From a virus (lineage: Duplodnaviria; Heunggongvirae; Uroviricota; Caudoviricetes): a stretch of 64,000 bases of DNA. Position numbers and translations under genes: made by a program. Where the stretch lies: the IMG/VR virus record IMGVR_UViG_3300043411_001076; one strand, written 5' to 3'. Numbering within the stretch: the stretch's first letter is position 1; every line of letters begins with the position of its first letter. Below the pieces are notes generated by a model. It had not been told where the DNA came from and made no database searches. It saw nothing but the letters and a program-made list of their open reading frames with translations. Of this stretch, positions 3,124 through 42,235 are shown in pieces.

Positions 3124-3762
3124 ATGTTAAAACAAAATCAATTATTTTATATCAATACGTATATCACATACAAAAATAATAATTTTGATATTTTGCAAGT
3201 AAATAATTTATTGGAAGGATTAAGTACAATAGACTTAAAAGAAATACAACAGATAAAAGAAGATATCGATTATATATTTGACGGGATGCCTGTAGAAAAT
3301 AGTCTTACAGAGGGAAGAATAAATGCATTATACGCTGAATGTATGTCTGATTTCCAGTCATTTCAGTGGAAGTGTTGTTTATCAACAGCAAGGATGTTAG
3401 TTAGAACTGATTCTAAATACCGATCCATTTATCTGTTTATGATGGGGAGATGTTATCAGTCATTAAATGCAATAGACTTATCTGTTTTTGTTTATCAGAA
3501 AACTCCTATTTATAAACTATATTTATGGATTGGATCTCTATGGAGAGATCCGCACATGATGAGTATTGAATCTATAAATAATGAACCTGATTCTGTCTGT
3601 TTGGAATGGTGGAAAGACAAAAAGAAACTTACTGTTTACATAGATTCTGATAAAATATCTTATTTGCAAGTGTCGGGTCCGTCCATACTAAATGATATGG
3701 TAGACGGAATATTGACGGAAGAAAACGCAGAAGGAGTATTTCAATGGATTTTGAAAGGTTAG
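3124..3762 (+). CDS. hypothetical protein
   Basis: ORF track starts at TTG 3112 inside terminator T-run; first ATG 3124 preceded by GAGGGAAAGG. Confidence 0.5.
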   Translation: MLKQNQLFYINTYITYKNNNFDILQVNNLLEGLSTIDLKEIQQIKEDIDYIFDGMPVENSLTEGRINALYAECMSDFQSFQWKCCLSTARMLVRTDSKYRSIYLFMMGRCYQSLNAIDLSVFVYQKTPIYKLYLWIGSLWRDPHMMSIESINNEPDSVCLEWWKDKKKLTVYIDSDKISYLQVSGPSILNDMVDGILTEENAEGVFQWILKG

Positions 3763-5438: not shown

Positions 5439-5580
5439 TTTCTATGTTACGTTTTTGTAGGTTCTGCGATATAATAGGCATCAGAAAGGTAGTAGCTAAT
5501 AGCTACTGCGGCGACTTGGATCGTTTTAAGGTTCTATCTATATGTGTAGTTGAACCTTAAAGCATTTTTTGGGAAAGAAA

Positions 5581-7194
5581 ATGACTAGACTAGCAAACGT
5601 TGTAAATCTTGTATCCGAAACTCCTTCGATGAAGGCTGATACCGTAAATAAGGAAGGATACGCCGCTTTCAAAAAGCAATTTGAAGAACAGTATATTCAG
5701 ACATTGTTAACTAATACTTTTGGAAAGGCATTTTACGCTACGTCTAATGAATTGATTAAAGAGTCTATTAATCTACACAACGAGATGGTAGAGAAAGATC
5801 CTGCATTTATGGCAAATGCCCTTGTATATGCCAGAAACAAGGGATACATGCGTTCTCAACCTATCTATGGTCTTGCAACATTGGCACGAAAATCAGTAAC
5901 TGATGCCAAAGCAGGACTAAAAGATTCGGCTGCTAGAGATAACTTCAAAAGAGTTTTCTCTCTAGTCGTACTAACTCCAAAGGACTTGTTAGACTTTGTT
6001 ACAGTGACAAGGTCTATGAGAGGATGGGGAAGTCTTGTTAGAAAGCAAGTACAGAAATGGCTAAGTGATAAGATGAATACCTATTGGGCCATTAAATATG
6101 GTTCCATGAAATCTGGAACCTATTCTTTGAGAGATGTTTATCGTATTTCTCACCCAAAGGTTTTGGAAGGTGCAAGGAAAGGAATCGTAAACTACATTGT
6201 TCGCGGTGAATTAGGTATGGAACACCCTGATCTGGAGCAGATTAATTGCTTTGAACAGTTAAAAACTGCAACTGATGCAGATTCCAAAGTTGAATTAATT
6301 AGACGCGGGCGCTTACCTCACGAAGTTGCGACTACCTTTGCAGGTAAAGATAAGAAGGTATGGGAATCCATTGTCCCTCAAATGCCTATCTTTGCCTTAC
6401 TACGGAATTTAGCAACCATTGAAAGAAATGATGTTGTGAAGGAAAGTAAGAATAAGATTGAGAGCACCTTCTCAAATGAACAGCAAGTACGAAAAAGTAA
6501 GATTCTTCCGTTCCAATTTTTATCTGCGATGGATAAGGTAACTACTCCTTTCATTAAAGATGCTCTTAGGGATGGTCTTGAGTTGTCTTTCAGTAATCTC
6601 CCAGAAATCACTGGTAACACAGTCGTATTCTTAGATATCTCTGGATCTATGGACGAATTAGATACCTCTGGATCTATGACCAATGGAAGTAAGATAAAGA
6701 CAGCCTCTATTTTTGCTGTTGCTCTTATGAAGAAGATTGAAGAAGGAAAACTATATCTTTTTGATACGGCTATTGAAGAAAGGGTAATCTCAAAAAGAGA
6801 TAGTCTTATGACTCAGGCAGAAAGAATCAAAACCAGAGGTGGTACTGAGACATCTATTACTATCGATACTATTCTTAGGAAGAAAGAAAAATATGATAAT
6901 ATTATTATGCTCACAGATGAACAGCAAAATTCTGGGCGTCCATTCTGTGATCGTTTAGCTGCATATCAAAGAGTTTACCCAGACGTAAAAACGTTTATTA
7001 TAGATATTTCTCCATACACTCAATCAAGGTCTTTACCTATTGATATGAAGAATGTATATTATATCTTTGGATGGTCCCCTAAAGTTTTGGAATTCATTTC
7101 TATGACTACTAAAGGATGGTCAACTATGACAGAAATGATCCGTGATCCGAAAAATTATTCTCTGCTTTCTGATAAAACAGAAGATGATGAATAA
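5581..7194 (+). CDS. Ro60-like protein: TROVE domain + von Willebrand A (vWA) domain
   Basis: N-terminal NKEGYAAFK...TNTFGKAFYATS...ANALVYARNKGYMRSQPIYGLATLA (TROVE-like); C-terminal MIDAS motif VVFLDISGSMD; ORF-track start 5569 is TTG, ATG 5581 has GGGAAAG upstream. Confidence 0.65.
   Translation: MTRLANVVNLVSETPSMKADTVNKEGYAAFKKQFEEQYIQTLLTNTFGKAFYATSNELIKESINLHNEMVEKDPAFMANALVYARNKGYMRSQPIYGLATLARKSVTDAKAGLKDSAARDNFKRVFSLVVLTPKDLLDFVTVTRSMRGWGSLVRKQVQKWLSDKMNTYWAIKYGSMKSGTYSLRDVYRISHPKVLEGARKGIVNYIVRGELGMEHPDLEQINCFEQLKTATDADSKVELIRRGRLPHEVATTFAGKDKKVWESIVPQMPIFALLRNLATIERNDVVKESKNKIESTFSNEQQVRKSKILPFQFLSAMDKVTTPFIKDALRDGLELSFSNLPEITGNTVVFLDISGSMDELDTSGSMTNGSKIKTASIFAVALMKKIEEGKLYLFDTAIEERVISKRDSLMTQAERIKTRGGTETSITIDTILRKKEKYDNIIMLTDEQQNSGRPFCDRLAAYQRVYPDVKTFIIDISPYTQSRSLPIDMKNVYYIFGWSPKVLEFISMTTKGWSTMTEMIRDPKNYSLLSDKTEDDE
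6638..6680 (+). repeat. in-frame tandem duplication (CTCTGGATCTATG x2, 27 nt apart) within vWA MIDAS motif
   Basis: Encodes SGSMDELDTSGSMTNG; direct DNA repeat visible. Confidence 0.5.
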
Positions 7195-15564: not shown

Positions 15565-16596
15565 ATGGATGCAGAAAGAATAATAAATCTAGCTATAGCT
15601 GGTGATACCAGTATAAAAGAAGAATTAAATTCAAGAGCAAAAAGAACAAGTGACCCGTTCTTAAAGTGTTTTAATGAGATATACAGACTGAAACCTGCAT
15701 CTCTAGTGGATCATACTGACGAAAAGTTTTCAGAGTATAGCAAATATGGATCAGTTATAGGTAAATATGAAAAGTCCATAGATACAATGTCGGAACAAGA
15801 AATAGATTATTTAGATAAGATCTCCACAAAGTTAGTCCCCGTTTATAAACGAAAAATACATAATAAAAGAAATATGTCATTATCATTTCCAAGTAGGAAC
15901 GTCCTGTTATTGTGTAAACACCTACACATAAAGAACGCAAACTATTTTGATTATTTAGGATGCCTGGAGCCGTTAGGTGGTGAGTGTGCTATAACTTTTA
16001 GTAGTAATACTCCGTTATTTGAAAAGTATTTAGATCCTCTACTGCATGTAGTGGGGGATATTAGATACCTAAATCTAGGTATTTCTTTTAGAAGTCAAAA
16101 AACCCTAGAAAGGGCATGGAGATTAAACCATTTAGATACTTTCATATCTAATGAAGAGTGGTATGTTGATAGATATGCTAATAAGTTAACAAACTATTTG
16201 AGTACTATAAGTTCTATAAAAATAATGAAAATACACGCAAATTGTTTACAGGTATTACCTACCACATGTTCTATTGAAAATTTACATATTCACAGTCTAA
16301 CAAAAAGAATGCTTTTAAAGTTAGACAAAGACGTGAAAATAGATAAATTAATAATTACGGATGAAGTATCCTATATTGATAAAGAAACAGTAAAATGTAT
16401 TATTTCTCTGATAGAAGATTATCCTAATATAAAAGTATTGAGATTATCTTACACAGAATGTATCGATTACACTTCTTATTCTAGGGATGACGAAAATATA
16501 AATAGATTAAAGGATACTATGAAATACTATCATAGTAAAGCTAAAAGAACTAACTATACTAGTTATGGTTATTATGAAGATGATTTACACGATTAA
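15565..16596 (+). CDS. MDxERL paralog family protein 1 (leucine-rich C-terminal region)
   Basis: N-terminal MDAERIINLAIAGD...KRTSDPFLK and YKRK motif shared with four downstream paralogs. Confidence 0.6.
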   Translation: MDAERIINLAIAGDTSIKEELNSRAKRTSDPFLKCFNEIYRLKPASLVDHTDEKFSEYSKYGSVIGKYEKSIDTMSEQEIDYLDKISTKLVPVYKRKIHNKRNMSLSFPSRNVLLLCKHLHIKNANYFDYLGCLEPLGGECAITFSSNTPLFEKYLDPLLHVVGDIRYLNLGISFRSQKTLERAWRLNHLDTFISNEEWYVDRYANKLTNYLSTISSIKIMKIHANCLQVLPTTCSIENLHIHSLTKRMLLKLDKDVKIDKLIITDEVSYIDKETVKCIISLIEDYPNIKVLRLSYTECIDYTSYSRDDENINRLKDTMKYYHSKAKRTNYTSYGYYEDDLHD

Positions 16597-16611
16597 ATTA
16601 AGGAATAAAAA

Positions 16612-17607
16612 ATGGACATTGAGAGACTCTTACATTTGGCGTTAGAAGGTGACACAGGAGTAGTAGGTGACATTAAAAAATACGCTAAAAGGACAGACGA
16701 CATCTTCACAAAATACTTTTCAACTATATTATCCTTAAAAGGATCTACCGTAATAGATAGTATTAAACAACGCCTGTTAGTATCAAATTCTAAATTTGGT
16801 ACTAACTTACAAAAGCTAGATAATTTACATTACTTATCTAACATCTCGTCAGATAATCTTATTTTACTAAATAAATTAGCTGATATGAAAGTTCCTTATT
16901 ATAAGAGAAAGTTTAGTAATCACTATGAGACTTCAAATAATTCATACCCAAACAAAAGGGCTGTGACCTTATTTAGACACTTGCAGATAAATACTCAGGA
17001 CTATGTGAGACACTTTTTCACAGACGACTTTTTTGAAATATTTGCAGAGGGCGATTATGCTCTATCTTTAGATCTAAAATCAAAGAATCTAAATGATATC
17101 CAGACATCTCATATCCTGTCTAGATTTTCTAATCTAAAATTTCTTGATATGAATTCCTATACTATAGGAAATATTGAAGAATCTGAATATGCTAGTTTAA
17201 TGTCTAAACTAGATGTGTTAATTGTAAAAGATAGTTATCCTATAGAAAGGATACTTATGACTTATACTGGAACTAAAAAAGTAGAATACCGATTAAAGCA
17301 GTTATTAGAATATTTAGCCAATAAAGAAATTGGACTTTCACATCTATATCTAGATTCAAATAAAATAAGGTTGCTTCCGAAAAAAGGACATATAAAATGT
17401 CTCTATGTTTATAGGTATACTGATGAGTTATGTTCCATACCAAAAGATTTAAATATAGATGTCGTGGTTATTAATAATCTTGGGAGTCATACTTATTTTC
17501 CAAGAATCGATAAGCTATTAAAGGATAAACCAAATATAAAAGATGTAGATTTTGACCTACAAGGAGTTAGGCGATCCTATAAACTATATAGTGCATATTG
17601 TGTGTAA
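16612..17607 (+). CDS. MDxERL paralog family protein 2
   Basis: MDIERLLHLALEGD...KRTDDIFTK...YYKRK. Confidence 0.6.
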   Translation: MDIERLLHLALEGDTGVVGDIKKYAKRTDDIFTKYFSTILSLKGSTVIDSIKQRLLVSNSKFGTNLQKLDNLHYLSNISSDNLILLNKLADMKVPYYKRKFSNHYETSNNSYPNKRAVTLFRHLQINTQDYVRHFFTDDFFEIFAEGDYALSLDLKSKNLNDIQTSHILSRFSNLKFLDMNSYTIGNIEESEYASLMSKLDVLIVKDSYPIERILMTYTGTKKVEYRLKQLLEYLANKEIGLSHLYLDSNKIRLLPKKGHIKCLYVYRYTDELCSIPKDLNIDVVVINNLGSHTYFPRIDKLLKDKPNIKDVDFDLQGVRRSYKLYSAYCV

Positions 17608-17638
17608 TTCTGGTTATTCTTACACATAAGGAAGTAAG

Positions 17639-18646
17639 ATGGATATAGAAAGGTTGATAGAACTTTATGTTTTCGGTGACAATTCAGTTATACCCTTAAT
17701 AAAAAAGGAATCAAGTAGAAGAAATGATCCCTACTTAAAATTAATTACTAGTTTCATGGCCATGAGAGGCTCATGCTATATTGGGACTCTAGACTATACA
17801 AACTACTCGACATTTGCAGGAGTTATTGCAAAATACAGTGATGCTCTAAAAGACTTCTCATCAGATCAAATGAGAATATTGGAGTTAGTCTGTGAAGGAA
17901 TACCGACGTTTAAGAGAAAATGTCCTATTGATATCCCATTATCTAATAATAGTCTATCCCTTTGTAGGCAGTTTAAGATACAAACGCGAAGAATGTTGAA
18001 TTCTTTATTAGCGGCAAGTAGTTTATTAAATAACCAAAAAGAAATAGATATTGCTTACGAACTAAGAATCCCCCATTATCAACTTAACATATATGAAGAT
18101 ATTATTAAGCTATATGGTATTCAGAAAGGGGTGTTAAAATGGTTTCATTCAGATAATACAATATTTAATAAGTTAATGGACCAGCAGTATGACTTATTTA
18201 ATAATATAGAGTTATTATCCATTGATTATTACCAGGATAGTCAAAGTTATAGGTATCAAAGACTAGATAAATTAAAACATCTGATATTTTCAGGTTATAA
18301 TATAAATTCCACTTTTGATACTTTTAAATTCAAAAATAAGCTAGATATTATAAGTATAAAATCTATCGAAACGGTTAATAAATTACATTACTCAACAAGA
18401 TGTTCAATTATAAAAGTGGAAGAAAAAATATTTTTACGGTACAGCAGTATGGAACTTTCTGGGAGATTACGAAAAATCAAGGAAACTTTATCCTATTTTA
18501 ATGATACCCTTAAAGATGTTGACTCTATACAGATCACTTTCCACTGTTGGATAAATAAAAACCACGCTCACAATACATTTTTAATAGATCGTAGTAAGAC
18601 AATCGAAGAACACATGGATGCAATAAACCAGCTATTTAAAGAGTAA
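17639..18646 (+). CDS. MDxERL paralog family protein 3
   Basis: MDIERLIELYVFGD...RRNDPYLK...FKRK. Confidence 0.6.
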   Translation: MDIERLIELYVFGDNSVIPLIKKESSRRNDPYLKLITSFMAMRGSCYIGTLDYTNYSTFAGVIAKYSDALKDFSSDQMRILELVCEGIPTFKRKCPIDIPLSNNSLSLCRQFKIQTRRMLNSLLAASSLLNNQKEIDIAYELRIPHYQLNIYEDIIKLYGIQKGVLKWFHSDNTIFNKLMDQQYDLFNNIELLSIDYYQDSQSYRYQRLDKLKHLIFSGYNINSTFDTFKFKNKLDIISIKSIETVNKLHYSTRCSIIKVEEKIFLRYSSMELSGRLRKIKETLSYFNDTLKDVDSIQITFHCWINKNHAHNTFLIDRSKTIEEHMDAINQLFKE

Positions 18647-18648
18647 GT

Positions 18649-19704
18649 ATGGACTTTGAAAGGCTATTAACACTTGCCTTAGAGGGGGATAAGGCAGTAT
18701 TAAACGATATAAAAGCAGAAGCAAAAAGAAGATGTTCCCCTTATATGCACTTGGTATATGGTCTTCTAAAAGAAATAGGAGACGAGAATATAGACTACAA
18801 TTACAAATCGTCGTTTTCTAATATACTAGAGAAAAATGTTGAAACTCTAAAGGGTTTAAGCAATGAAGAGTATGAAGTACTGAGGTTAATAGCAAGTAAA
18901 ATACCGTATTACAAGAGAAGTAGTCCGTTAAAGAAGGACAATATGTATAACGATTCTATTTTTAGACTGTGTACATATTTTAAAATAGACTCCGTAGTCT
19001 GTATGCATAACGTTCAAAGACTAAACTCTGTACATGGTAAATACTTAGAGAAAAACCTAGCGTATAAGATTTCTGAAACGGTTTCAGATAATAAAGAAAT
19101 CTATAAATTTATTAGAAGTGTTAAGGATAACACACGATTCCTTGATATCCCTACAAATTTAGCAAATTTAATTTACTATCCAAATGTATACAAGAACAAA
19201 CGTGTTAGTTGGGACGTACTGTACAATTTAAAATACTTAAAATTATCTGGGCTGAATTTTGGAAATGGTAAAATAAATCCTTTAATAGAAGCTGCACCAC
19301 ATTTAGAGTTTTTGGATGTTAATGCATTTGAGTTAAAACAAGATTCTCTACCAGAAACTATGAATCTAAAAGTCCTAAAAATATCAAATAGTGTAGGACT
19401 TAATAATATTAATCTGCCTTATACTGAGCATATGCAGATAGATAAGTTAATATTATCTGATCCGATCTCAGCGGCAGATTTTAATAGTTTTAAAAAACTA
19501 CTTTATATACTATTTAATAGTAAATATAGCATACATAAGGTACACTACGGTATTTCAAATTATTTCTATGGAAAGAAGGGGAAAATAAATGTAAAATGGT
19601 ATACGATAGATACATCTACTGATAGTATCGATGATATTTATCGTGACTTAGAGAGGATCAGTAAAAAATTAATGTTAAAAGAGAGCAACGCAGATAAATC
19701 TTAG
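18649..19704 (+). CDS. MDxERL paralog family protein 4
   Basis: MDFERLLTLALEGD...KRRCSPYMH...YYKRS. Confidence 0.6.
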   Translation: MDFERLLTLALEGDKAVLNDIKAEAKRRCSPYMHLVYGLLKEIGDENIDYNYKSSFSNILEKNVETLKGLSNEEYEVLRLIASKIPYYKRSSPLKKDNMYNDSIFRLCTYFKIDSVVCMHNVQRLNSVHGKYLEKNLAYKISETVSDNKEIYKFIRSVKDNTRFLDIPTNLANLIYYPNVYKNKRVSWDVLYNLKYLKLSGLNFGNGKINPLIEAAPHLEFLDVNAFELKQDSLPETMNLKVLKISNSVGLNNINLPYTEHMQIDKLILSDPISAADFNSFKKLLYILFNSKYSIHKVHYGISNYFYGKKGKINVKWYTIDTSTDSIDDIYRDLERISKKLMLKESNADKS

Positions 19705-20516
19705 GTTATCTTCGATAGGTTAGGGAAACAGTATTTCAAGGCTGCTCTATCAGCTATCTTCAAAGTATCACCTAGTTTTAAAGTATGTAATTTCGGGGAT
19801 TTTAATAAGTATAGATTCTCTATATCCCTAATAGGATTCTTACTAAGAATTAGAACCCCTAGATTTGGGAATCGACATTTTTCCAGTCCTTCTAAAGATG
19901 TCACTGCATTATTCGTTAAATTTAGCAACTGTAATTTTTTACAGTTCAATTCATGTAAATTATAAATACTATTAATTAAATTGTTACCAAGATCTAAGTA
20001 TTTAAGATTTGGCAAATTCCATGTACGTATTAGGTCTATATCAGTTATCTTATTGTAATCTAATGAAAGATGACTTAAACTTGGAAAACTTAGATTCTCA
20101 CTGCCTTCTAAAGAGCTTATTTGATTATTGACACATATTAGTTTATCTAAAGATATTGCGTTTAAATAATTGATTCCTGCTAAAGAAGAAATACCTGTAT
20201 CAGTTATCCATAGTTCTTTAAGATTATTAGCATTTACTCCTGTAAGCCACTGGATATCGTTTAAAGCTTTATTGTTAAATTCCCATTTCTCTCCATTCAA
20301 ATCCAGATTAATATTATAATTGGTTTTAAGATATTCTAAAAGAAAGTCTGGATTTGCTCCTCTTCTACTTAATAGAGAATAGTAGGTTGAAAGGAGTGAT
20401 GGGTCTGTTGGATTTAGTCGAATTAAATGTTCCAATCTCTCCAATACAGAATCGCTAGAAGCTCTAATATGCTTTGCTAGTTTCTTAATAGACTTGTGGA
20501 TAGTCATAAAATACAA
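19701..20516 (-). CDS. leucine-rich repeat (internalin/SDS22-type LRR) protein, IKKLA paralog 1
   Basis: ~22-residue repeats LxxLxxLxLxxNxIxxIxxL (e.g. LNLTNNAVTSLEGLEKCRFPNLGVLILSKNPIRDIENL); N-terminal IKKLAKHIR shared with 20525 and 22282 genes. Confidence 0.7.
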   Translation of the reverse strand: MYFMTIHKSIKKLAKHIRASSDSVLERLEHLIRLNPTDPSLLSTYYSLLSRRGANPDFLLEYLKTNYNINLDLNGEKWEFNNKALNDIQWLTGVNANNLKELWITDTGISSLAGINYLNAISLDKLICVNNQISSLEGSENLSFPSLSHLSLDYNKITDIDLIRTWNLPNLKYLDLGNNLINSIYNLHELNCKKLQLLNLTNNAVTSLEGLEKCRFPNLGVLILSKNPIRDIENLYLLKSPKLHTLKLGDTLKIADRAALKYCFPNLSKIT

Positions 20517-20524
20517 CTCACAAT

Positions 20525-21109
20525 TTATATTAAAATTTCAGCGTCTGGGAATTTCAATTGAAGACTATCGTACACAACACTTTTATTAATTATGGGATTT
20601 TTTGTGAGATCTAAAGTTTTCAAATTATCTGCGTCTAATTCTAATAATTCATCCACATGAGTCAGATTGTTTGATGATAGAATAAGATGCTCTAAATTAT
20701 CAGCCTTAAGATTCTGTAAGTCTCTTAAAGAAACTAACATATTATTGGCTACTAAAATGCTCTGTAGATTAGGAGCAATAAGCCCACCTATTCCTCTAAG
20801 GCTTACCAACTCATTATTAGATAAATCTAATTCTTCAAGATTATTTAGTCTCAAACCGCTCATCCATAAAATATGTGGGACTCCATGATTAAATAAATCT
20901 AAAAATGGGGATTTTATATCTAATACATCACCACCAATAAAATTATCTAAGTAATAAGGATAAGCCCCAGACCTGGACCATAGTTTATTATATAACTGCC
21001 AAGCTAAAACATTACTATCATTCTTTTTCAACTTAGCGGCTGCATTATCTAGTTCTCTCTGATTTGCAATCCGAATCATACTAGCTAATTTTTTTATCTC
21101 TGTATACAT
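20525..21109 (-). CDS. leucine-rich repeat protein, IKKLA paralog 2
   Basis: NLEELDLSNNELVSLRGIGGLIAPNLQSILVANNMLVSLRDLQNL... LRR units; N-terminal EIKKLASMIR. Confidence 0.7.
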   Translation of the reverse strand: MYTEIKKLASMIRIANQRELDNAAAKLKKNDSNVLAWQLYNKLWSRSGAYPYYLDNFIGGDVLDIKSPFLDLFNHGVPHILWMSGLRLNNLEELDLSNNELVSLRGIGGLIAPNLQSILVANNMLVSLRDLQNLKADNLEHLILSSNNLTHVDELLELDADNLKTLDLTKNPIINKSVVYDSLQLKFPDAEILI

Positions 21110-21183: not shown

Positions 21184-22239
21184 ATGGAACTAGAAAGAAT
21201 TTATTCTTTAGCGTCATTAAAAGATCCATCATATGCCTCTTCTATTTTATCAGAAGGAAATAGAAGAAACGACCCATTAATTTCATTAATTGCTCACCTT
21301 CTGGATTTATATTCTTCTAAGCTATCCGTAAACTCTGTTGACAGTAATATGGTTAAAGAAGATTATAGAACGAGTTCTACATACAGTAGAATCCTTACTC
21401 AATATAAGCAACTTATTGATTCATTATCAGAAGAACAGATTCAGTATTTAATCACGTTAACAGAGGGACTTAATTATAGATACAAGTTATGTCCACCAAA
21501 ACTAAAAGACATATCGACTAATATACTCAAGCTCTGTAATTATTTTTGTATAACGAAAACTAATTTCATGGACCAATTACATTACCATGCTGTTACACAT
21601 CCAAGTATAAATAAAGAACTAAGATATGATCTTATGCTAGGAACTCACCTACCAATTTCAGATTTTTTAGGAAATAGTAAACAACATGGGGTACTTAAAA
21701 GACTTAGAATTCCAACATCTCAACTATTAACTTTGGAAGATCAGGGTTCGGTAGGGAACGTGGATTATTTGTATTTAGATTATATTAATAGGCATACAGC
21801 TATGCGGTTTACACATCGAAAAACCATAGAAGAAGCTTATTATAAGGCTTTTACATTATTTTCTAATTTGAAACATCTCAAAATATTAAATTTTCAATAT
21901 GACAATATTCCATTACCTTCTTTAGAATCTTTGGAATTGGATGTAACTTTCGATCCAAGATGTGATATACAGTCAGACAAATTAATTAATTATGTAAATA
22001 GATTTATAAATGTGAAAAAACTCATCATATCTAATAAAATAAATGTGAGATCCAATATTAATGGGGAACTATACCTAGAGCCAGGAGATATAAAATTATT
22101 ATGGATGTTGGAAAAATCTAAAATAGATAATTTATATGTGAAAGTAAAATCTCGGCAGAATACTATTCTAGTAAATTCTACTCCTGGAACCGACTACTGT
22201 TCTTCTATCTTTAACAAGATTAAGGAACTTGACAGTTAA
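21184..22239 (+). CDS. MDxERL paralog family protein 5
   Basis: MELERIYSLASLKD...NRRNDPLISL; ORF-track start 21124 extended, ATG 21184 preceded by TAAGGAACAAGAGA like the other paralogs. Confidence 0.55.
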   Translation: MELERIYSLASLKDPSYASSILSEGNRRNDPLISLIAHLLDLYSSKLSVNSVDSNMVKEDYRTSSTYSRILTQYKQLIDSLSEEQIQYLITLTEGLNYRYKLCPPKLKDISTNILKLCNYFCITKTNFMDQLHYHAVTHPSINKELRYDLMLGTHLPISDFLGNSKQHGVLKRLRIPTSQLLTLEDQGSVGNVDYLYLDYINRHTAMRFTHRKTIEEAYYKAFTLFSNLKHLKILNFQYDNIPLPSLESLELDVTFDPRCDIQSDKLINYVNRFINVKKLIISNKINVRSNINGELYLEPGDIKLLWMLEKSKIDNLYVKVKSRQNTILVNSTPGTDYCSSIFNKIKELDS

Positions 22240-22281: not shown

Positions 22282-23088
22282 TCAAGTAATTATAGTCAAA
22301 TTTTTATGTTTTTTTGATTTATATATTTGATTTGCTAGATTAGGATCTAAACCTAATAAATAAACATCTAGACCTTTTGTCCTTCCCTCTGCTAGTTTGT
22401 TCAACTGATTTACGATATATGGCGCATTGGACAGAGGGTTTCCATTTAAGAACAGATTTTTTAATTTAGGAAAATTTAAATCCTCAATTCCATCTAGATC
22501 GTAGATTTTATTTAATACAAGATGTATGTTTTTCAAATTAGGTGCTGTTATATGAGATAATTCAGATATGTGACTTATATTGTTATGGTTTAACAACAGA
22601 TTTCTTAATACAGGAGCATCCATTTGCGGGATTTTCGATATTTTATTCTTTTCTAAATTTATTCTTATTACCTTAGATAAGTCTAATGTGGACAGATCAT
22701 CAATATCTGTAAGCTTATTATTAGAAAAATCAATCTCTATCAAGTTAGGAGTAATAGCATCTCCTAATCCTTCTATTGATGTGAGATTAGCGTAGTCATA
22801 AGCAAGGACTTCTAAATTAGGAAAAGTAAGCCCTGCCATCCATTGTAAATCATCAACCGCACCGCCTAAGTTAAAAGCATCCAAGTGTAAATAGAAACCA
22901 TACGTCTCTGATACCCAATTTATGTATATTTCTGGATCTTCCGTTAGTCTATTACATAATTTAAGATAGGCTTTTCTAATAGAAACATCTCTAGGATCAA
23001 GTTGTAATCGTCTTCCTAGAATTTCTAATTCTGCATTGGTTGATGACAAGCGAATATGAGAAGCGATTCTTTTTATTGCTTTAAACAT
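22282..23088 (-). CDS. leucine-rich repeat protein, IKKLA paralog 3
   Basis: LRR units LxxLxLxxNKIxxIxxL (e.g. LKNLFLNGNPLSNAPY, IRINLEKNKISKIPQM); N-terminal FKAIKRIASHIR. Confidence 0.7.
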   Translation of the reverse strand: MFKAIKRIASHIRLSSTNAELEILGRRLQLDPRDVSIRKAYLKLCNRLTEDPEIYINWVSETYGFYLHLDAFNLGGAVDDLQWMAGLTFPNLEVLAYDYANLTSIEGLGDAITPNLIEIDFSNNKLTDIDDLSTLDLSKVIRINLEKNKISKIPQMDAPVLRNLLLNHNNISHISELSHITAPNLKNIHLVLNKIYDLDGIEDLNFPKLKNLFLNGNPLSNAPYIVNQLNKLAEGRTKGLDVYLLGLDPNLANQIYKSKKHKNLTIIT

Positions 23089-23163: not shown

Positions 23164-26100
23164 TTACTGTTCGCATCCACCAGCAGAGCAGGCAGCTTCA
23201 CCTTGAAATGAAGTTCCATCTTCTAATTCAAGCATAAATTCATAGTTCACAGGCTTGAAATTAGAAACAATATTATTCCATAGGAATTCATCTTTTTCAG
23301 TAACTACTTCTTCTCTTGGAGCAAAGGCATAATCTTTATCTCCTGAGTAGGGAAGCATCGAGATACCAGAAAACTGGAACCTTCTATCCCATAAGAAATG
23401 TTTTACATCTTCCCATTCATCAGGTTTAACAACGACGGTATTAGACACATTATTCTTAAGTCCTGGATTATCAGTATCTCTGGCAGTTCCGTAAGCAATC
23501 CAATTAGTCTGTGTCAAGAATACCCTCTCCAAAAATTCTAAAGCCGTCATATCATTTCTTGTTACTGCTCCTTCAGGAGCTTCTACACAGAACGTAATAA
23601 CATCTTCTGTGTCATTAACCTTTTCACACATATGGGGATTTATACTCTTGAAAAATTGATAAACTGCTTCACCTGGAGACATACGAACACGTCTAAAATA
23701 TCTCTTAGCATGATGCGGATGTATTCCACTACCCACACAACCTAGAGCTAAGGACGCTGTACCTGAAGGTTTTACTGCGGTAAGTCTAGCAGCAGAATTA
23801 ATACCTAGTAGGGCAGAAAACTTTTCATTTACTTCTTTGCATAATAAGGCTGCCCTTCTCTGAAGATCGGCATTAAAAGCAATAGCAGGGTTATCTACCA
23901 TTCCCGTCATAGAAACGCCCAACAAGGCATCTCTACGAGCAAGTAACTCTGTCACTGGTCCTAAATATGGAAAATCTGTATATCCAGCTTGGCAAGTACC
24001 AATGATTGTAGCTGCCGTCACCGATTCTAAAAATTCTTCTTCTGTCTTACATGCTGCAACATTTACTTCTGATAAATTACAAAACGACCAACCACATAAG
24101 ATATCTCCAATATTGACATTAATATTTCTTTCTTTTAAGAAGATTTGGGCTTTAGAATCAACAACATAGAAAGGATTGAATTGGACCTCGCTACAATTTC
24201 CACTAACAATACCATTAGCGATTACGCTATTCGTTTCGGGCTGAGTGAGACAGTACACATCTGTTCTCTCATCCATTTTCGTAATAGAAACTATTTTTGT
24301 AATGTGTCTTTCGGGCTTATTACAATCTCTACCTCGTTCGTCTAAAACCTGTGTAAGTCTTCTTCCTTTTGCCCCAGGTAATTTAATTGTATTTTCAAAA
24401 GTTATACAATTAGGACGGCTAATAATAAGTTCGTGCATAGGTTGGCATAGATAATCTTTATGGCCACCCTTTCCATCAGGTAACTTACGATAAGCTTCTT
24501 CAGTTCTCCTATACACCTTAGAAACAATTCCAAAACCCATCAAAAGATTTTGAATATCTTCCAATAAATCTCGATTAACTTGTGAAATTCTTAATGAAAC
24601 CGTTTTCTTTTTATCCTTTCCAGAACACAAGACAGTTCCATCAGATACAATCATTCCTGCAATATAGCCAGCCACCATTTCTTTGGTTCCCTTCCAAACA
24701 ACTTCTGGAACCATTTTTTTCAGATCACTGGTAGACTGTCCCTGTAAAATATTCTCAACTACTTTATAGAAATTTGCACCCCCTATTCTCTTTTTTGTTC
24801 CATGATCTTGACTATGCCACCCCAAATCATTTTTATTATTTAATTTGAATAGTTGTCTCTGATCATTAACAATCTTATGTAGTAAATCAGATAATTCGAA
24901 GTCCGACTCCCAAATGTCTATAAACGCACTTTTACCGCTGAAACATCCATCTCCTGTAAGCATTCCGAGAATAAATCCTTGATCCCAGCTTCCCTCCCTC
25001 CCAAATCTTACAGAACCAGAGTTTAACAAAAGAGTATCCCCAACAGATAACTCATGCGTTTCCTTTCTTCCATTAAAAGTAGGGAATTTATGGTTTTCTG
25101 TTACTTTTAATCTCTGCCCATGTTCTGTCTGTATCTCAAATACTTCTGCGCTCTTTTTGGTAAGGAACGCAGAAGTTGCCTTTCTTAGTTTATTTCCCTT
25201 TAATTCTGGAAATATCAGATCCCCTTTACCAACTCTGGTATCTGTATTAACACATAAGGGTATCCCATTTTTCTCCATATCTCCGATTTTCATCCATCCT
25301 TTACTTGTAGAGATCCTAGTATCAGGATGGAAACACGGATTTGTGCCGTAATCTAGACTATCTACAAATAAGAACCCAGGCTCTCCATATTCTTTTGTAG
25401 ATCTAAATAGTCTGCTATACTGTTCAAAAGTTGCTTGACTTCTTAATAGTACTGCCGAATTATTAGCGCGAGATCTCCAAGGATGTGTTTTCCACCATTC
25501 TCCAGTTTTAGCATTAATCATTTCCTCATCATCAATAGAAAATAAGGAAATCGAAGCACTGCGACGGACACCCCCAGCTAATACAGCTTCGCTAGCTAAA
25601 CATACGATGTCATGGCATTCAATAGGTCTTAAATGCCTGCCTTGAACTGAATCTAGTACTTTCCTAATACGACGAATTGCCAATTTAAGAGGGATATGTC
25701 CTGGTGCTCTACCGCCTGATGTAGACAGGTAAGATCCTTTACCTCTTATTTGACTATAAGAAAATTCGGTATAGTAGTCTCCTTCGACATAAGACATAAT
25801 AAGTGCATGCAATGCATCTGCCCATCCTTGGATCGTATCTTCTACGATATGATGTCTTACTTTGTCTTTATTAATATGCTTTAAAGGAGCTAATTGCGCG
25901 ACATGGTGCTTCTGTACTGAAAACCCTGTACCGCATCCACAGAGAAGTAAGAAAAAGGCTTCTTTAAAGAAAGAAAAACGATTGCATGGGCTAAAGCTAC
26001 AATTATAAATTCGTTCATTGATCGCTTTTACGCCCTTACCACCAAACTGCATAGATCGCATACTTGGAAGGGAAACACGATCTCTAACTTTATTAAAAGC

Positions 26101-26607
26101 CCATCTGATATCATTTTCAATTTGAGGAAACTTTTCAATGTGCATATTCTGTACACGGTCTATACTTTCCCCATGTACTTCGCGTCTAAATACTTCCTTC
26201 TTATACTGAGAATATTTAGCAACGTGAATGAAATCTGCTATTACTTCTTTAGGTAATCCTGGAAGCCTTTGATTTCTAAGTTCACTTCTCTTATTTCTAT
26301 AAAGAATATAAGACTTGGCTGCTTGGGGTAGATTAGCGCCAACTAAGATGTTTTCGACAATATCTTGAATAAGTTCTACATCAACGAAATCTTTATTTTC
26401 GGTGTCATTTGTCTTAGACAGTAAGATATACTGTGAAACTGCCTTACAAACATTATTTGTTAAATCTTCTAAATTATAAGTTTTAACATCATCACAAGAT
26501 AGTAAGCATTTATAAATAGCGTCTTTTATTTTTCCCTTTTCAAACGAGACAAGAGAACCATTTCGCTTTTTCACTAAAAAATTGGTATCGTAAATCGACA
26601 TGGACAA
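23164..26607 (-). CDS. ribonucleotide reductase catalytic subunit (ATP-cone; class II-like NPC[S]E active-site motif) interrupted by an intein
   Basis: N-terminal ATP-cone-like region; extein junction GTNP|CSEVQF matches RNR active-site NPCGE; C-terminal redox pair C-x4-C (AACSAGGCEQ); 380-aa Hint+LAGLIDADG insertion. Confidence 0.85.
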   Translation of the reverse strand: MSMSIYDTNFLVKKRNGSLVSFEKGKIKDAIYKCLLSCDDVKTYNLEDLTNNVCKAVSQYILLSKTNDTENKDFVDVELIQDIVENILVGANLPQAAKSYILYRNKRSELRNQRLPGLPKEVIADFIHVAKYSQYKKEVFRREVHGESIDRVQNMHIEKFPQIENDIRWAFNKVRDRVSLPSMRSMQFGGKGVKAINERIYNCSFSPCNRFSFFKEAFFLLLCGCGTGFSVQKHHVAQLAPLKHINKDKVRHHIVEDTIQGWADALHALIMSYVEGDYYTEFSYSQIRGKGSYLSTSGGRAPGHIPLKLAIRRIRKVLDSVQGRHLRPIECHDIVCLASEAVLAGGVRRSASISLFSIDDEEMINAKTGEWWKTHPWRSRANNSAVLLRSQATFEQYSRLFRSTKEYGEPGFLFVDSLDYGTNPCFHPDTRISTSKGWMKIGDMEKNGIPLCVNTDTRVGKGDLIFPELKGNKLRKATSAFLTKKSAEVFEIQTEHGQRLKVTENHKFPTFNGRKETHELSVGDTLLLNSGSVRFGREGSWDQGFILGMLTGDGCFSGKSAFIDIWESDFELSDLLHKIVNDQRQLFKLNNKNDLGWHSQDHGTKKRIGGANFYKVVENILQGQSTSDLKKMVPEVVWKGTKEMVAGYIAGMIVSDGTVLCSGKDKKKTVSLRISQVNRDLLEDIQNLLMGFGIVSKVYRRTEEAYRKLPDGKGGHKDYLCQPMHELIISRPNCITFENTIKLPGAKGRRLTQVLDERGRDCNKPERHITKIVSITKMDERTDVYCLTQPETNSVIANGIVSGNCSEVQFNPFYVVDSKAQIFLKERNINVNIGDILCGWSFCNLSEVNVAACKTEEEFLESVTAATIIGTCQAGYTDFPYLGPVTELLARRDALLGVSMTGMVDNPAIAFNADLQRRAALLCKEVNEKFSALLGINSAARLTAVKPSGTASLALGCVGSGIHPHHAKRYFRRVRMSPGEAVYQFFKSINPHMCEKVNDTEDVITFCVEAPEGAVTRNDMTALEFLERVFLTQTNWIAYGTARDTDNPGLKNNVSNTVVVKPDEWEDVKHFLWDRRFQFSGISMLPYSGDKDYAFAPREEVVTEKDEFLWNNIVSNFKPVNYEFMLELEDGTSFQGEAACSAGGCEQ
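24196..25335 (-). mobile_element. intein (Hint domain + LAGLIDADG homing endonuclease) inserted at RNR catalytic Cys
   Basis: Starts CFHPDTRISTSKGW (block A), LAGLIDADG motifs ILGMLTGDGCF and IAGMIVSDGTV, ends VYCLTQPETNSVIANGIVSGN followed by +1 Cys (blocks F/G); aa 425-804 of host protein. Confidence 0.75.
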
Positions 26608-27953: not shown

Positions 27954-28883
27954 TTAGGATCTGGCTAATAAACTAGGTCTTCCTAATCCCAAACCTGCTG
28001 GACGTGGTGTAGACAACATTCCAGGGGATCTTCCTAATCCTAATCCAGCAGGCTTTGTAGGAGCACCATCATCTTCAGAGGGAGGCATAGATAGTCCAGG
28101 TGGCTTCGGTATATCTTTTCCAGCATAGGCATCAAATTTTCCTTTTGCTTTTGAAAAGTCTTCATCCTCTTTCTTTTCTTCCCAAGGTTCATCACCTACC
28201 GCAAAACCTTTCCTCGCTTTTAAATCATAAACTTTTGCCATAAGACCGTTAGATTTTAATAGTTTATGGAACTCTTGTGGTGTAATATTTTTAAGAACTT
28301 CTTCTTTTTCTCGCATCTTGTTTACAAATTTTTCTGCTTCTCGCGCATCATTATATAAAGCTGTTATATAATAATCTTTGCCGAAATATCCTTGGATCAT
28401 ATCAAATCCAAAGGTTAATTTTACGGTAGGGGACACCACTTTAAATATTTGCTTTTTCTGATCCTTATATTCTGTTTTACCTTTCTTTAAGGACACAAAA
28501 GACCTGTCATCTGCTTTAAATAATTTTGCTACGACTTTTTGTAAATCAGAAACAGCATTATCATATGTCATAGAATCAGACTGTGACCACCTAGCTACTA
28601 GCTGATCCATGATTTTGACAAAATTTAAGTAATCCTCCAATCCCTTCTTTTTTAAATCTGCTTTATCTACCAGCAGTGTTATTGAATCCTTCATATCCCC
28701 TGTTGTTGTCTTATCGACTAATCTAAGAATAAAAATCTTCGCATCAGGATCGTATTTTTGTAAAACGACATTGGGATTTCTTGATAGAGGTGTGGCTGCT
28801 AACCGAATAAGCCTTGCCATCTTTCTTATGGTTCTGATTAATTTAGCTTTTTTATACATAGTAATCCATTTTTTAAGTTCCAA
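27954..28883 (-). CDS. hypothetical protein with C-terminal PAGLGLGR repeats
   Basis: 309-aa ORF; C-terminal repeated PAGLGLGRSP / PAGLGLGRPS mirrored by a DNA direct repeat. Confidence 0.5.
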   Translation of the reverse strand: MELKKWITMYKKAKLIRTIRKMARLIRLAATPLSRNPNVVLQKYDPDAKIFILRLVDKTTTGDMKDSITLLVDKADLKKKGLEDYLNFVKIMDQLVARWSQSDSMTYDNAVSDLQKVVAKLFKADDRSFVSLKKGKTEYKDQKKQIFKVVSPTVKLTFGFDMIQGYFGKDYYITALYNDAREAEKFVNKMREKEEVLKNITPQEFHKLLKSNGLMAKVYDLKARKGFAVGDEPWEEKKEDEDFSKAKGKFDAYAGKDIPKPPGLSMPPSEDDGAPTKPAGLGLGRSPGMLSTPRPAGLGLGRPSLLARS

Positions 28884-32470: not shown

Positions 32471-34636
32471 TCAGCCAGCATTAAACTCTGTAACGAGTTT
32501 TTCAATGTCAGCTTTCAATAGAGTCTTCTTATCAAGAAGTTCTGTAAGTAATTTATCGAATAATGGACGATTATCAGCCAAAATCGTCTGGCAACGTTTT
32601 TGCTGTTCTTTTAGAATATTATCAATGTGAACATCAATTTTATTCGATAGTTCAGCACTTACACTAGGACGATCATCTTTGTCGTGAACATGACCGACAG
32701 GTGCTGTAATTGCTCTCAATGTAGCATCTGACATACCCAACCGTTCTACCATGAGTCTAGCGATATCAGTAGCTTTTTCGAGATCGTTCGCACAACCAGC
32801 CGAAAAATCACCATAAATTAGGAGTTCTGCTTCACGACCGCCAAATAGGATGCAAATGGTATCCAGGAATTGACCGCGTGTTTGAACGTATTTCTTATCA
32901 CCTGTCTCATGCAATACGTAACCAAGAGCACCTTCTTTATCAGAAGCAATGGTAATTTTTTCAATAGGTTCACTATTTGTAGTCTTTAGTCCAATGATAG
33001 CATGGCCTACTTCATGAACTGCAATTACCCTTTCTTCTTTCACACTCAACTTAATTTTTGTAGATGCCGATTTAGGCAAAGCAGCCATACAATTTTCTTC
33101 TGTAAGCAAAATTTCTTCGGCTTTAATGAACTTTCCCTTCTTTGCAGTTTCTTGAGAACGTCGAATGGATTCACGTTTCAATCCGCGTGCAATAGCGTTC
33201 AAGTGATCACCTGAAAACTTGAGATTGTTCTTAACGTCAGAGTATCCGCCTGTACGATCTACGAGAAACTTAATCAGTTCGTCAGACAGATTAAGATTGA
33301 ATTTTTTACGGTACAGATCAAGGATGATCTTTCTATCGTCTTCTTTTGGGTAAGGAATCTCAATCTGCAATTCAAAACGACCAGGACGTAACAGTGCAGC
33401 ATCGATACTTTCCACAAAGTTTGTGGTGGCTACGATAAATACAAGATCTTCCTTACGGAATCCGTCCATTTCTGTGAGTAGTTGGTTAACCATTGAGTGT
33501 TCAACACCGCTACCACCGTAAGTACCACGGTGAGTTGCAAAGCTATCAATTTCGTCAAACACGATAATTGACGGTGCCGATTTTCGTGCCTTCATAAATA
33601 CGTCACGAATGTTTTTCTCTGAATCACCAACCCACTTACTTTTTAGTTCTGGACCAGAAACAATAATGATTGTGGCATCCAATGCAGTGGCCATAGCCTT
33701 TGCAAAGAATGTTTTACCCGTACCTGGAGGTCCAGAGAAAATCATACCTTTTGGTATAATTTCTTCAATCTGCTTAACCTCATCTACAGAGGTTAGTGTC
33801 TCCTTATAATTAAGGAGTTCAAGAATTTCGTTTTTAATGCGTTTTTTTACTTCTGAGTACCCACCGATGTCATTATCCAAACTTACGTTTGGAAAATCTA
33901 CATCTGAGGTGATAGTCATATTACGAAGTTCTCGGTACAATGCATTTGTCTGAGACTCGTCATCTTTATTATAATCTAAACGATCATGAAAAGACTCAAG
34001 GACTTCACGTAGTCTAACAACGTTCATCCCAGAAACATATTTATACAATTTGAAAGGATTAAATTCTTTATGTCCAAATTTCTTGGCCTCTGTCTGAGTA
34101 ATTACACAAGGCAGAATATCACGTGTAATTCCAGAAATCGTTCTCTTAGCCGAGAATAGATGTTCAATAGGCTCTGGAATTTCCAAAGAAGGATCTTTAA
34201 ACATGACGATACGAACATCAGGATTATCGTAGACAGCAGCCATCAATTCTCTACTCGTATCTGTCATACCTGATTTAGAGGTAGTAACTGCAACGTCAAG
34301 GTGAGGAATAAACAAGCAGATATTAGATTCACCAGAGAAAATTCTCACAAGCGTTTGTGCCAACAAGTGTCGCATAATATTTCCACCACTTTCAGGATCT
34401 GGACCTGCAATGAGGTGGCTGGTAAATTTAAATGCTGTATTGTCTTTCAATGCTGTACGAATAAGTTTATACACATAAGTATAAAGTTGCTTCTCACATT
34501 CAATGAGAACGTTCATTCCCTTTACAATCTTATCAACGATCCATTCCAAATCTTCACGATATGCGATTTGTACAGCATTCAAATGTGTCAATTTTGCAGG
34601 CAGTGAACTGATCTGTGTCAAAGTCTTATCCGACAT
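32471..34636 (-). CDS. FtsH-like AAA+ ATPase / M41 zinc metalloprotease, no N-terminal TM region
   Basis: Walker A GPPGTGKT, Walker [37 protein letters not shown] (HEVGHAIIG), [33 protein letters not shown] matches the FtsH protease core; ORF-track start 34729 is TTG, ATG 34636 preceded by AAGAGAGAAAAGAAG. Confidence 0.8.
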
Positions 34637-34736
34637 CTTCTTTTCTCTCTTCTTTTCTTGTTTTTGATTAACACCCACAGACAGTCTCTGTGAGTTCTTA
34701 GTATAAAATAATTGATAATGAATGTGCAAATAAAAA

Positions 34737-40690: not shown

Positions 40691-42235
40691 ATGAACGACA
40701 ATCAAGAACTCGGATGTCTGTATCTAAACCCAGAAGATTTACAAAATTTCTTCTGGGCCTCCCTCTCTGAGAGAGGTCACAAAAATGAACCTACCGCTTG
40801 GTCATTTAGACAGGCTATCACATGGTACATTGAACTTTATAGTAAAGGTTGGGACTCTGTCCCATTCTTTTTTGTTTATGACTTGGGATTGCTTCTTATG
40901 GAAGCTAATAAATTTCAATTCCGAAACTATTCGGAAACAGATGTTACGAAAAACACAGAAGAAGTTAACGCCCAGATTAGTCGTCGTGTAACCTATCAAA
41001 ATAGAATCTTAAATAGATTTTTGGCTCTCCCTGTATTTAGTGAATTACATGATTTTGTGGTAGAATCGAAAAACCCAAAATTGCAAATTGCAGCTATTTT
41101 GTCTTACTGGTTAGAACCAATTAAGAAATCTAACATTGAGTCTGTGCAGACATCTGCACAAATTCTAAGACAACTTACAAGTCCAGCTATTACTGTAGAA
41201 GAGGCTAGAGTAGCGGTAGAACAGTTACTAGAAGCCCCTAATTATTTCTATGATCAACTTGAAGAAGTTATCCGAGTAATGTCGGAGACACATCTGTCAA
41301 ACTTAATCCAGCCCGAAGACATTTTTATTATTAAAAATATCGAGGCGTTAAGCAGTGACGCCCTGCGTCTTTCTGCAAAGCAAGTAGTAGGTATTGAACA
41401 ACAAATGGGAGATGTAGACCATCCTCCCGTACATATGAGAAAAGAAGCACCCCAAGCACACGTTAATCTTTCAGACGTAGGTTTATATCCTCAAGGTGGA
41501 TTAGATCAACTTTCTAATAGAGGAAGTATTGAAAATCTTGTAAGAACTGAATTGGCTTATGTAGACGATAAAGCCGATATTGATATGTTTACTATGCGTT
41601 ATCTTGAGGGTGAGCTTCTATACTACACTAGAGATGAGGCACAGCTTCTAAGAAGAAACAGAACTACTCATATTTCCCTTGAGTTCGGGCACGCTCACCA
41701 TATCAAATACCCTAACCATCCAACTCAAATGTCTATTCTTTTACGGGCTATGACAGCCCGATTAATTGACGATTTATTTAAGTTATTTGCTAATGACTCA
41801 TTAAAAGTTATTTTACATATCCATGATATTAGATCTTCTGATGCTGTAGAACTGTGGAAAATCCGATTCAAAGATCAGTTGACTAGAAGTGATATGCAAT
41901 TAAATGTTGTAAACTCTCCTCCATTTGCTAATGTGAAAAAGAAAGACTTTAAAGCTTTGCAAGAAGAAACTGCTAAATACATTGATACTGGTAGATACTC
42001 TACATTAATACGCATTTCTCCGTTAGAACCTCTTTCTAATGAAGAATTAAGTCTTGCAGGTAGACAGGGATTAAATATCCTGCATCTACAATGTCCTTTC
42101 AAAAAGCCTGCTGAGAAAAAAGAGGACGTACCAACCCAACAAAAATTTATTGGTGTAACTTCAGATGATAGAAATATTATCGAAAGCCTACACGAAGCTA
42201 GAAAGTATCTCTTGTGGACTCTCTTAGGTTGCTGA
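40691..42235 (+). CDS. hypothetical protein (514 aa)
   Basis: Long ORF; followed by bidirectional terminator. Confidence 0.55.
   Translation: MNDNQELGCLYLNPEDLQNFFWASLSERGHKNEPTAWSFRQAITWYIELYSKGWDSVPFFFVYDLGLLLMEANKFQFRNYSETDVTKNTEEVNAQISRRVTYQNRILNRFLALPVFSELHDFVVESKNPKLQIAAILSYWLEPIKKSNIESVQTSAQILRQLTSPAITVEEARVAVEQLLEAPNYFYDQLEEVIRVMSETHLSNLIQPEDIFIIKNIEALSSDALRLSAKQVVGIEQQMGDVDHPPVHMRKEAPQAHVNLSDVGLYPQGGLDQLSNRGSIENLVRTELAYVDDKADIDMFTMRYLEGELLYYTRDEAQLLRRNRTTHISLEFGHAHHIKYPNHPTQMSILLRAMTARLIDDLFKLFANDSLKVILHIHDIRSSDAVELWKIRFKDQLTRSDMQLNVVNSPPFANVKKKDFKALQEETAKYIDTGRYSTLIRISPLEPLSNEELSLAGRQGLNILHLQCPFKKPAEKKEDVPTQQKFIGVTSDDRNIIESLHEARKYLLWTLLGC

Follow-up and report, generated by a model that had tools for sequence, protein, structure and literature searches.

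An intein with a nested LAGLIDADG homing endonuclease domain at the catalytic cysteine of an RTPR-like ribonucleotide reductase from an uncultured phage

Introduction

The virus record IMGVR_UViG_3300043411_001076 (IMG/VR; Caudoviricetes) was analysed over a stretch of 64,000 nucleotides, here called the window, which contains a ribonucleotide reductase (RNR) gene with a 380-amino-acid (aa) segment placed directly before the codon of the catalytic cysteine. The locus raises the question of what this segment is, whether it leaves the protein, and whether it moves between phage genomes. The segment is very probably a class 1 intein that houses a LAGLIDADG homing endonuclease; it interrupts the N-P-C-S-E loop, in frame, between Pro and the catalytic Cys of a phage class II RNR that carries an ATP cone and resembles the adenosylcobalamin-dependent ribonucleoside-triphosphate reductases (RTPR). 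Coordinates are those of the window and refer to the minus strand unless stated otherwise, and a slash in a motif marks an intein junction.

Precursor gene and intein boundaries

The precursor is encoded by an open reading frame (ORF) at 23164..26607, which holds the ATP cone, the RTPR-like class II RNR and one intein in a single uninterrupted frame. The product is 1147 aa long when counted from a TTG at 26607 and 1145 aa from an ATG at 26601, the latter being the start in an identical public protein (P0008). The original prediction, made from the sequence alone, had placed an intein at 24196-25335 or aa 425-804; in numbering from the TTG start, translation of the ORF maps aa 425-804 exactly to 25335..24196, and the coordinates, both ends and the GTNP/CSEVQF junction were all reproduced. 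The intein (24196..25335, 380 aa) runs from Cys1 to Gly-Asn380, starts with CFHPDTRIST and ends with ANGIVSGN, after which the protein continues with Cys-Ser-Glu-Val (CSEVQF), so that excision in silico gave DYGTNP/CSEVQF. The codons at the C-terminal junction are GGA AAT/TGT, specifying a penultimate Gly, a terminal Asn and a +1 Cys. The N-extein (25336..26601) has 422 aa from the ATG, includes Cys201 and ends in DYGTNP. The C-extein (23167..24195) has 343 aa and begins with CSEVQF; its first codon (TGT, 24193..24195) encodes the +1 Cys, the predicted nucleophile of trans-esterification, which after splicing would be the Cys of N-P-C-S-E, the thiyl-radical position of RNRs (PMC2677866).

Identity of the intein and its endonuclease

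Four curated models matched above their cut-offs. PF14890 (Intein_splicing) scored 51 bits on the full ORF and 53.5 bits on the 380-aa insert (cut-off 35.8), PF14528 (LAGLIDADG_3) scored 63 bits on the full ORF and 67 bits on the insert (cut-off 22.5), and on the insert alone TIGR01445 (intein_Nterm) scored 42.8 bits over aa 1-86 (cut-off 24.5) and TIGR01443 (intein_Cterm) 25.1 bits (cut-off 15.6). These scores are far above chance for intein identity. A profile made from seven allelic inteins was run against solved structures and matched 59 solved inteins and LAGLIDADG enzymes, among them DnaB mini-inteins (1e-15), VMA inteins, PI-PfuI (1DQ3, 1.4e-12), PI-SceI and I-DmoI. The whole precursor was modelled with AlphaFold (mean predicted local distance difference test score 79.6) and searched with Foldseek, where the top match was the class II RNR 1L1L (E 1e-22, template modelling score [TM] 0.65), followed by TliVMA (7QSU, TM 0.61), PI-PfuI (1DQ3, E 6e-13, TM 0.54), PhoVMA and PI-SceI. 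Curated models, profile and fold matches thus agree on the two-motif LAGLIDADG intein that had been proposed, and the checks suggested with that proposal, against intein profiles and by structure prediction, came out with intein models above cut-off and a precursor model that looks like RTPR plus endonuclease-containing inteins. The intein matched no family in PHROGs.

The N-terminal splicing region (24982..25335) contains block A with Cys1 (25297..25335) and block B with T-E-N-H (25078..25110). Cys1 (TGT) follows directly after the last Pro of the N-extein and is invariant in the alignment of allelic inteins, as are Thr79 and His82 of block B (T79-E-N-H82) across the seven sequences. The nested homing endonuclease domain (24322..24981) is supported by PF14528, by invariant residues and by the fold matches to TliVMA, PI-PfuI and PI-SceI. 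It contains LAGLIDADG motif 1, FILGMLTGDGCF (24940..24975, with FILGMLTGDG), motif 2, AGYIAGMIVSDGTV (24631..24672, with YIAGMIVSDG), and a conserved LPDGKGG (24451..24486). An acidic residue is kept in both motifs (G128 D129 G130 and D232 G233 are invariant in the seven allelic inteins), which corresponds to a two-motif monomeric LAGLIDADG enzyme with two helices, each ending in an acidic catalytic residue. The C-terminal splicing region (24196..24321) contains block F, DVYCLTQPETNSVIANG, block G, IVSGN, and the TIGR01443 match. Of the features of a class 1 intein, Cys1, a block B T-x-x-H, a terminal Asn followed by Cys +1, and contiguous intein-free homologues were found. A class 3 intein, considered on account of a Cys in block F, was rejected because Cys1 is present and the Trp at B:12 and the Thr at G:5 are absent, these positions being Phe and Ser.

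Insertion site and intein-free homologues

The 380-aa segment is missing from most homologues of the host protein, which measure about 750-780 aa. In P0010 (61% identical), P0013, P0016 and P0042 the motif NPC[GV]E is unbroken exactly at the junction, and the +1 Cys is invariant in an alignment of 38 homologues, in line with the earlier claim that the insert stands directly before the catalytic Cys. All 45 intein relatives with extracted junctions are inserted at NP/C.E. The arrangement in the window, GTNP/intein/CSEV, puts the intein directly before the Cys of N-[PL]-C-x-E and hence at the RNR radical-Cys site, described as the position that inteins occupy most often in class I/II RNRs (Dassa et al., PMC2677866). 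The corresponding sequence in the 595-kb uncultured phage LR756511 is SNL/CVTGD...SFITSN/CTEI. The intein is unremarkable within a large, already known group and lies at the commonest site of its enzyme family.

Host ribonucleotide reductase

The ATP cone, an allosteric activity site, was found in the N-extein at 26281..26574 (PF03477, 59-60 bits, aa 12-109). The best family of the spliced sequence was TIGR02505 (RTPR) at 200 bits, which is below the 340-bit equivalog cut-off, so that the host is RTPR-like and not an equivalog. The closest solved relative by sequence (5e-26), and the top match by fold, is the Lactobacillus leichmannii RTPR (1L1L), which shares the N-P-C-x-E loop, the F-C-N-L cysteine and the C-terminal C-x4-C pair. 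The window protein differs from 1L1L in its intein, in an additional loop of about 30 aa between the two active-site cysteines, and in its first ~216 residues, which hold the ATP cone and are left out of the alignment.

Conservation in the host protein was taken from the 38-homologue alignment. Asn421, Cys803 (+1), Glu805, Cys201, Cys841, Cys1138 and Cys1143 are invariant, and Pro422 is kept in at least 90% of the sequences. Cys201 (25999..26001) aligns with the family-invariant cysteine of N-C-S, the second active-site Cys lies in F-C-N-L of the C-extein (24079..24081), and the C-terminal C-x4-C pair, also in the C-extein, is at 23188..23190 and 23173..23175. The five-cysteine pattern of RTPR (two active-site, one radical and a C-terminal pair) is thereby present, and we take C201, C803, C841, C1138 and C1143 to correspond to RTPR C119, C408, C419, C731 and C736. 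Sequence and model support a class II-like, RTPR-like RNR with an ATP cone as the host, and the earlier suggestion of a class II-like enzyme with an ATP cone fits the best family, the best solved relative and the PF03477 match. RTPR-like homologues with 32-41% identity are common in cultured phages, and more than 8000 homologues of the host protein were found in a metagenomic protein set.

Selection on the intein and signs of its mobility

Ratios of nonsynonymous to synonymous substitution rates (dN/dS) were calculated against the contig L003 (protein P0009), which comes from a different sample and is syntenic with the window, the genome segments being 65-78% identical in nucleotides. The ratio was 0.084 for the whole intein, 0.035 for the N-terminal splicing part, 0.11 for the endonuclease part, 0.09 for the C-terminal splicing part and about 0.06 for the exteins, all of these values being approximate because the extein dS is saturated (>2). 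In three pairwise comparisons the ratio for the endonuclease region was 0.11-0.13. Purifying selection thus acts on the intein and on its host protein, and the dN/dS of ~0.1, found for the splicing and the endonuclease regions alike, speaks for function in both. Such strong conservation of the exteins would be pointless unless the enzyme is assembled, for which splicing would be needed, and the constraint on the endonuclease part suggests that the endonuclease is still working.

A close relative, P0128 (contig L004, from a third sample), was found by an exhaustive search; compared with the window protein it has 28 differences in 1145 aligned residues (97.6% identical). It carries a second LAGLIDADG intein of 405 aa at GGVRR/SASISLF (L004 9403..10624); the same site is present exactly and is unoccupied in the window (25558..25563, junction 25560/25561). 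Identity between the two genomes is 87% over the 9.4 kb upstream and 95.6% from the second-intein site onward, and within the gene it is ~92% over codons 1-347 and 97-100% from codon 348 to about codon 900, the whole first intein included. The synonymous differences end exactly at the insertion point of the second intein.

Within the endonuclease domain, a mosaic patch of 60 codons (24712..24891, intein aa 149-208) has 81% nucleotide identity to L004, compared with ~98% in the rest of the first intein. Positive selection was considered for this patch and rejected, since dN/dS is 0.12 and dS itself rises to about 1.0, compared with about 0.1 in the remainder of the intein; the likely cause, given this high dS with low dN/dS, is recombination with an intein allele that is more divergent. 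In the comparison with L003, the second half of the endonuclease domain has 80-87% third-position identity and the rest of the gene 30-60%. Recombination and intein polymorphism are therefore present at the population level. The patterns fit gene conversion and homing, in either direction, among co-circulating phages, and the recombination tracts around the inteins indicate ongoing mobility.

It is conceivable, though unlikely, that only the splicing domain is active and that the homing endonuclease is dead, the intein being passed on vertically as a mere passenger, retained only because it is hard to delete precisely at the catalytic Cys. Decayed endonucleases are found in many inteins, and shorter inserts of 279 aa (P0011) and 317 aa (P0038) occupy the same site. 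Such decay is at odds with the acidic residues retained in both LAGLIDADG motifs, with the constraint measured for the endonuclease region in all three comparisons, and with the tract of high identity around the intein, which stands out from the 87% genome background and indicates recent transfer. A real and probably active intein is the reading preferred here from these sequence comparisons.

Intein clade and non-canonical catalytic residues

Relatives were collected with HMMER from 1.84 billion representative proteins, searched exhaustively; 2894 passed a threshold of E <= 1e-3, and 180 of these also passed E <= 1e-30. A word-indexed search with the intein alone gave 7 matches and missed both P0008 and the 87%-identical intein of P0009, whereas the exhaustive search recovered the family. 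A scan of IMG/VR with the intein pattern returned distant matches only (24-41% identity). Residue counts below refer to the 45 relatives with extracted junctions.

At the positions of the block-F Asp, the block-F His, the penultimate residue and the terminal residue, the window intein has Cys, Asn, Gly and Asn, as judged from block F matched residue by residue to DnaB mini-inteins (VYCLTQPETNS against VFDLTVPGLHN). It therefore lacks three assisting residues that are typical but not obligatory, namely the block-F Asp, the block-F His and the penultimate His (G:6). The same departures recur in the clade: of the 45 relatives, 33 have Cys where Asp is usual (F:4) and 23 have Asn in place of the block-F His; 34 have a penultimate Gly as against four with His, and 25 end in Gln, the other 20 in Asn. 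The complete set C-N-G-Q occurs in 12/45 and C-N-G-N in 4/45, and C-N-G-[N/Q] is the commonest state of the clade. About 5% of functional inteins carry a residue other than His at G:6, the block-F and penultimate histidines are not needed in all inteins, and Gln can stand for the C-terminal Asn (PMC4031507).

Among named inteins, the one in bnrdE of SPbeta (SPBc2; Bsu-SPbeta RIR1, annotated in NC_001884) lies at the homologous site, FSNL/CVTGET...NGIVTGN/CSEV, and aligns over the full 380 aa with 29% identity (tblastn E 2e-37). It also has a nested LAGLIDADG domain with LPDGKGG, a penultimate Gly and a terminal Asn, but its host is a class Ib NrdE (N-L-C, not N-P-C) of a temperate Bacillus siphophage, and it retains the block-F Asp and His (DVYD...YHS). 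The penultimate Gly is a lineage trait and no anomaly, because it occurs in most of the relatives and in SPbeta; the original prediction was right that Gly is present, but it had treated it as unusual and had left the block-F Cys and Asn unmentioned.

The inteins of the uncultured RTPR-like RNRs P0009/L003, P0128/L004, P0098, P0109 and P0129-P0134 share the host family, the site, the CFHPDTR start and the C-N-G-[N/Q] set with the window intein, at identities of 87% (P0009), ~97% (P0128, which has the extra intein) and 47-52% (P0098, P0109 and P0129-P0134). Most same-site RTPR-like relatives end in Gln, in contrast to the Asn of the window, and among the close inteins the terminal codon is AAT (Asn) in the window and L004 and CAA (Gln) in L003. 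PI-PfuI (the Pyrococcus furiosus RNR intein, 1DQ3), TliVMA, PhoVMA and PI-SceI have the same layout of Hint splicing domain and LAGLIDADG domain but differ in their archaeal or yeast hosts, their canonical His-Asn ends and an identity of 13-17%. The RNR intein of Chilo iridescent virus (CIV RIR1) splices efficiently with its native terminal Gln (PMC4031507, PMC549080); it resembles the present case as a viral RNR intein whose C-terminal end is non-canonical, Gln being the terminal state of most relatives of the window intein, and differs in its source, a eukaryotic virus whose RNR is of class I, and in the Asn that ends the window intein.

As a tentative idea with a rather low chance of being right, the clade, in which all three usual assisting residues of C-terminal cleavage are replaced and Asn and Gln are swapped freely even at 87% identity, may use a distinct catalytic arrangement to form the succinimide or glutarimide, possibly through the block-F Cys or the reactive +1 radical-site Cys, or redox-gated splicing. 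A more specific version, in which the intein is a redox-sensitive switch, trapped by a disulfide among Cys1, the block-F Cys and Cys +1 and releasing active RNR only under reducing conditions, is improbable. Disulfide-controlled inteins are known, and the three cysteines do stand at catalytic positions, with the one at F:4 enriched in the clade; that enrichment may simply reflect common ancestry.

Still less probable is an intein that is splicing-defective or very slow for want of the block-F Asp, the block-F His and the penultimate His, which would make the RNR gene a pseudogene or dependent on a helper. The non-canonical residues would suggest such a defect, but the same residue set is the commonest one in the clade and occurs there in otherwise intact RNR genes, the constraint on the exteins would be senseless were the product never assembled, and functional inteins without a penultimate His are documented (PMC4031507). 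That the segment is a lineage-specific structural insertion kept in the mature enzyme, for which nothing speaks beyond its being in frame, can be dismissed, because intein and LAGLIDADG models score above cut-off and most homologues lack the segment and run unbroken at the junction, where it splits Asn-Pro from the invariant Cys-x-Glu; neither a conserved RNR insertion without Hint blocks nor a flank unlike the RNR loop, either of which had been named as grounds for giving up the intein, was found.

Proposed splicing and homing

The following steps are modelled on the established class 1 pathway. The 1145-aa precursor would be inactive because the Cys of the finger loop is set 380 residues apart from Asn-Pro. 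Splicing would start with an N-S acyl shift at Cys1, helped by Thr79 and His82 of block B, and the thioester would then be attacked by the +1 Cys to give a branched intermediate. Cyclisation of Asn380 would release the intein, and an S-N shift would yield the mature RNR of 765 aa with the sequence GTNP-CSEVQF; the cyclisation would take place with Gly for the penultimate His and Asn for the block-F His, as a lineage-wide trait. The excised intein would act as a site-specific endonuclease on intein-less RNR alleles during co-infection, and repair from the intein-plus allele would copy the intein and co-convert its flanks.

Some points weigh against a class 1 intein with a working endonuclease in a class II RNR. 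The three assisting residues are non-canonical, with Cys for the block-F Asp, Asn for the block-F His and Gly for the penultimate His. The dN/dS values against L003 suffer from the saturation of the extein dS. The TIGR02505 score under the equivalog cut-off means that B12 dependence and a triphosphate substrate are putative only, and actual splicing and DNA cleavage are what we infer from the sequence.

Genomic setting

The window has ~30% G+C, is densely coded and encodes a family A DNA polymerase, a DnaB-like helicase, an SNF2 helicase, a UvrD-like helicase, FtsH, TROVE/Ro60 and other proteins. In a megablast search of the locus against cultured and deposited phages, a 37-bp match was all that was found, so this phage is absent from that collection. 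The closest phage relative of the polymerase is in LR745208, a 485-kb uncultured "huge phage" record (35% identity), and by this resemblance the element is most likely a large uncultured phage. The polymerase gene (51790..54537, 915 aa) has ~80 additional residues in the polymerase domain, with weak zinc-ribbon matches at aa 421-460, and the polymerase of LR745208 matches in three pieces over 4.9 kb, which suggests insertions in the LR745208 gene.

A second intein in the window is a 191-aa mini-intein without an endonuclease (44673..45245), located in the UvrD-like ORF (43173..48125) at helicase motif III, GDDKQ/CLSATTCIST...NNVLSHN/SIYSFRSA, with a canonical His-Asn end and Ser at +1. Tandem paralogues of ~330-350 aa starting with MD[AIF]ERL..LA..GD are encoded at 15565..19704 (plus), 21184..22239 (plus) and possibly 3744..5438 (plus); none of those scanned had a match in Pfam or PHROGs. 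An N-terminal motif, IKK[LI]A..IR[LI].., is common to the proteins at 19701..20507, 20525..21109, 22282..23088 and 27954..28859 (all minus); the first three are leucine-rich-repeat-like, and their L003 counterparts have Pfam matches to such repeats. The start of the UvrD-like ORF loosely resembles this motif, which may be a shared targeting or packaging signal. Unusual phage cargo comprises an FtsH-type AAA protease, an ivWA protein of the 'FtsH ternary system', a TROVE/Ro60-like protein with a vWA domain and an ADP-ribosylglycohydrolase (loci at 32471..34729 on the minus strand and 40691..42235, 5569..7194 and 1723..3054 on the plus strand).

Implications

For annotation, the gene should be described as a single, intein-containing RNR precursor; the public entry of the same sequence, P0008, bears no other label than "intein/homing endonuclease". 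The clade of inteins at the RNR radical-Cys site is large and experimentally almost untouched, and the present member is a compact, Gly-Asn-terminated candidate for protein-engineering screens. If splicing in this clade were redox-gated, it would couple the maturation of RNR to the state of the cell. With the polymorphism of the second intein, the recombination boundary exactly at its site, the mosaic patch and the Asn/Gln swap, the locus is a convenient natural system for the study of intein homing and turnover in phages. It adds one more case of inteins at the most conserved catalytic residue of an essential, replication-related enzyme, here in a large uncultured phage.

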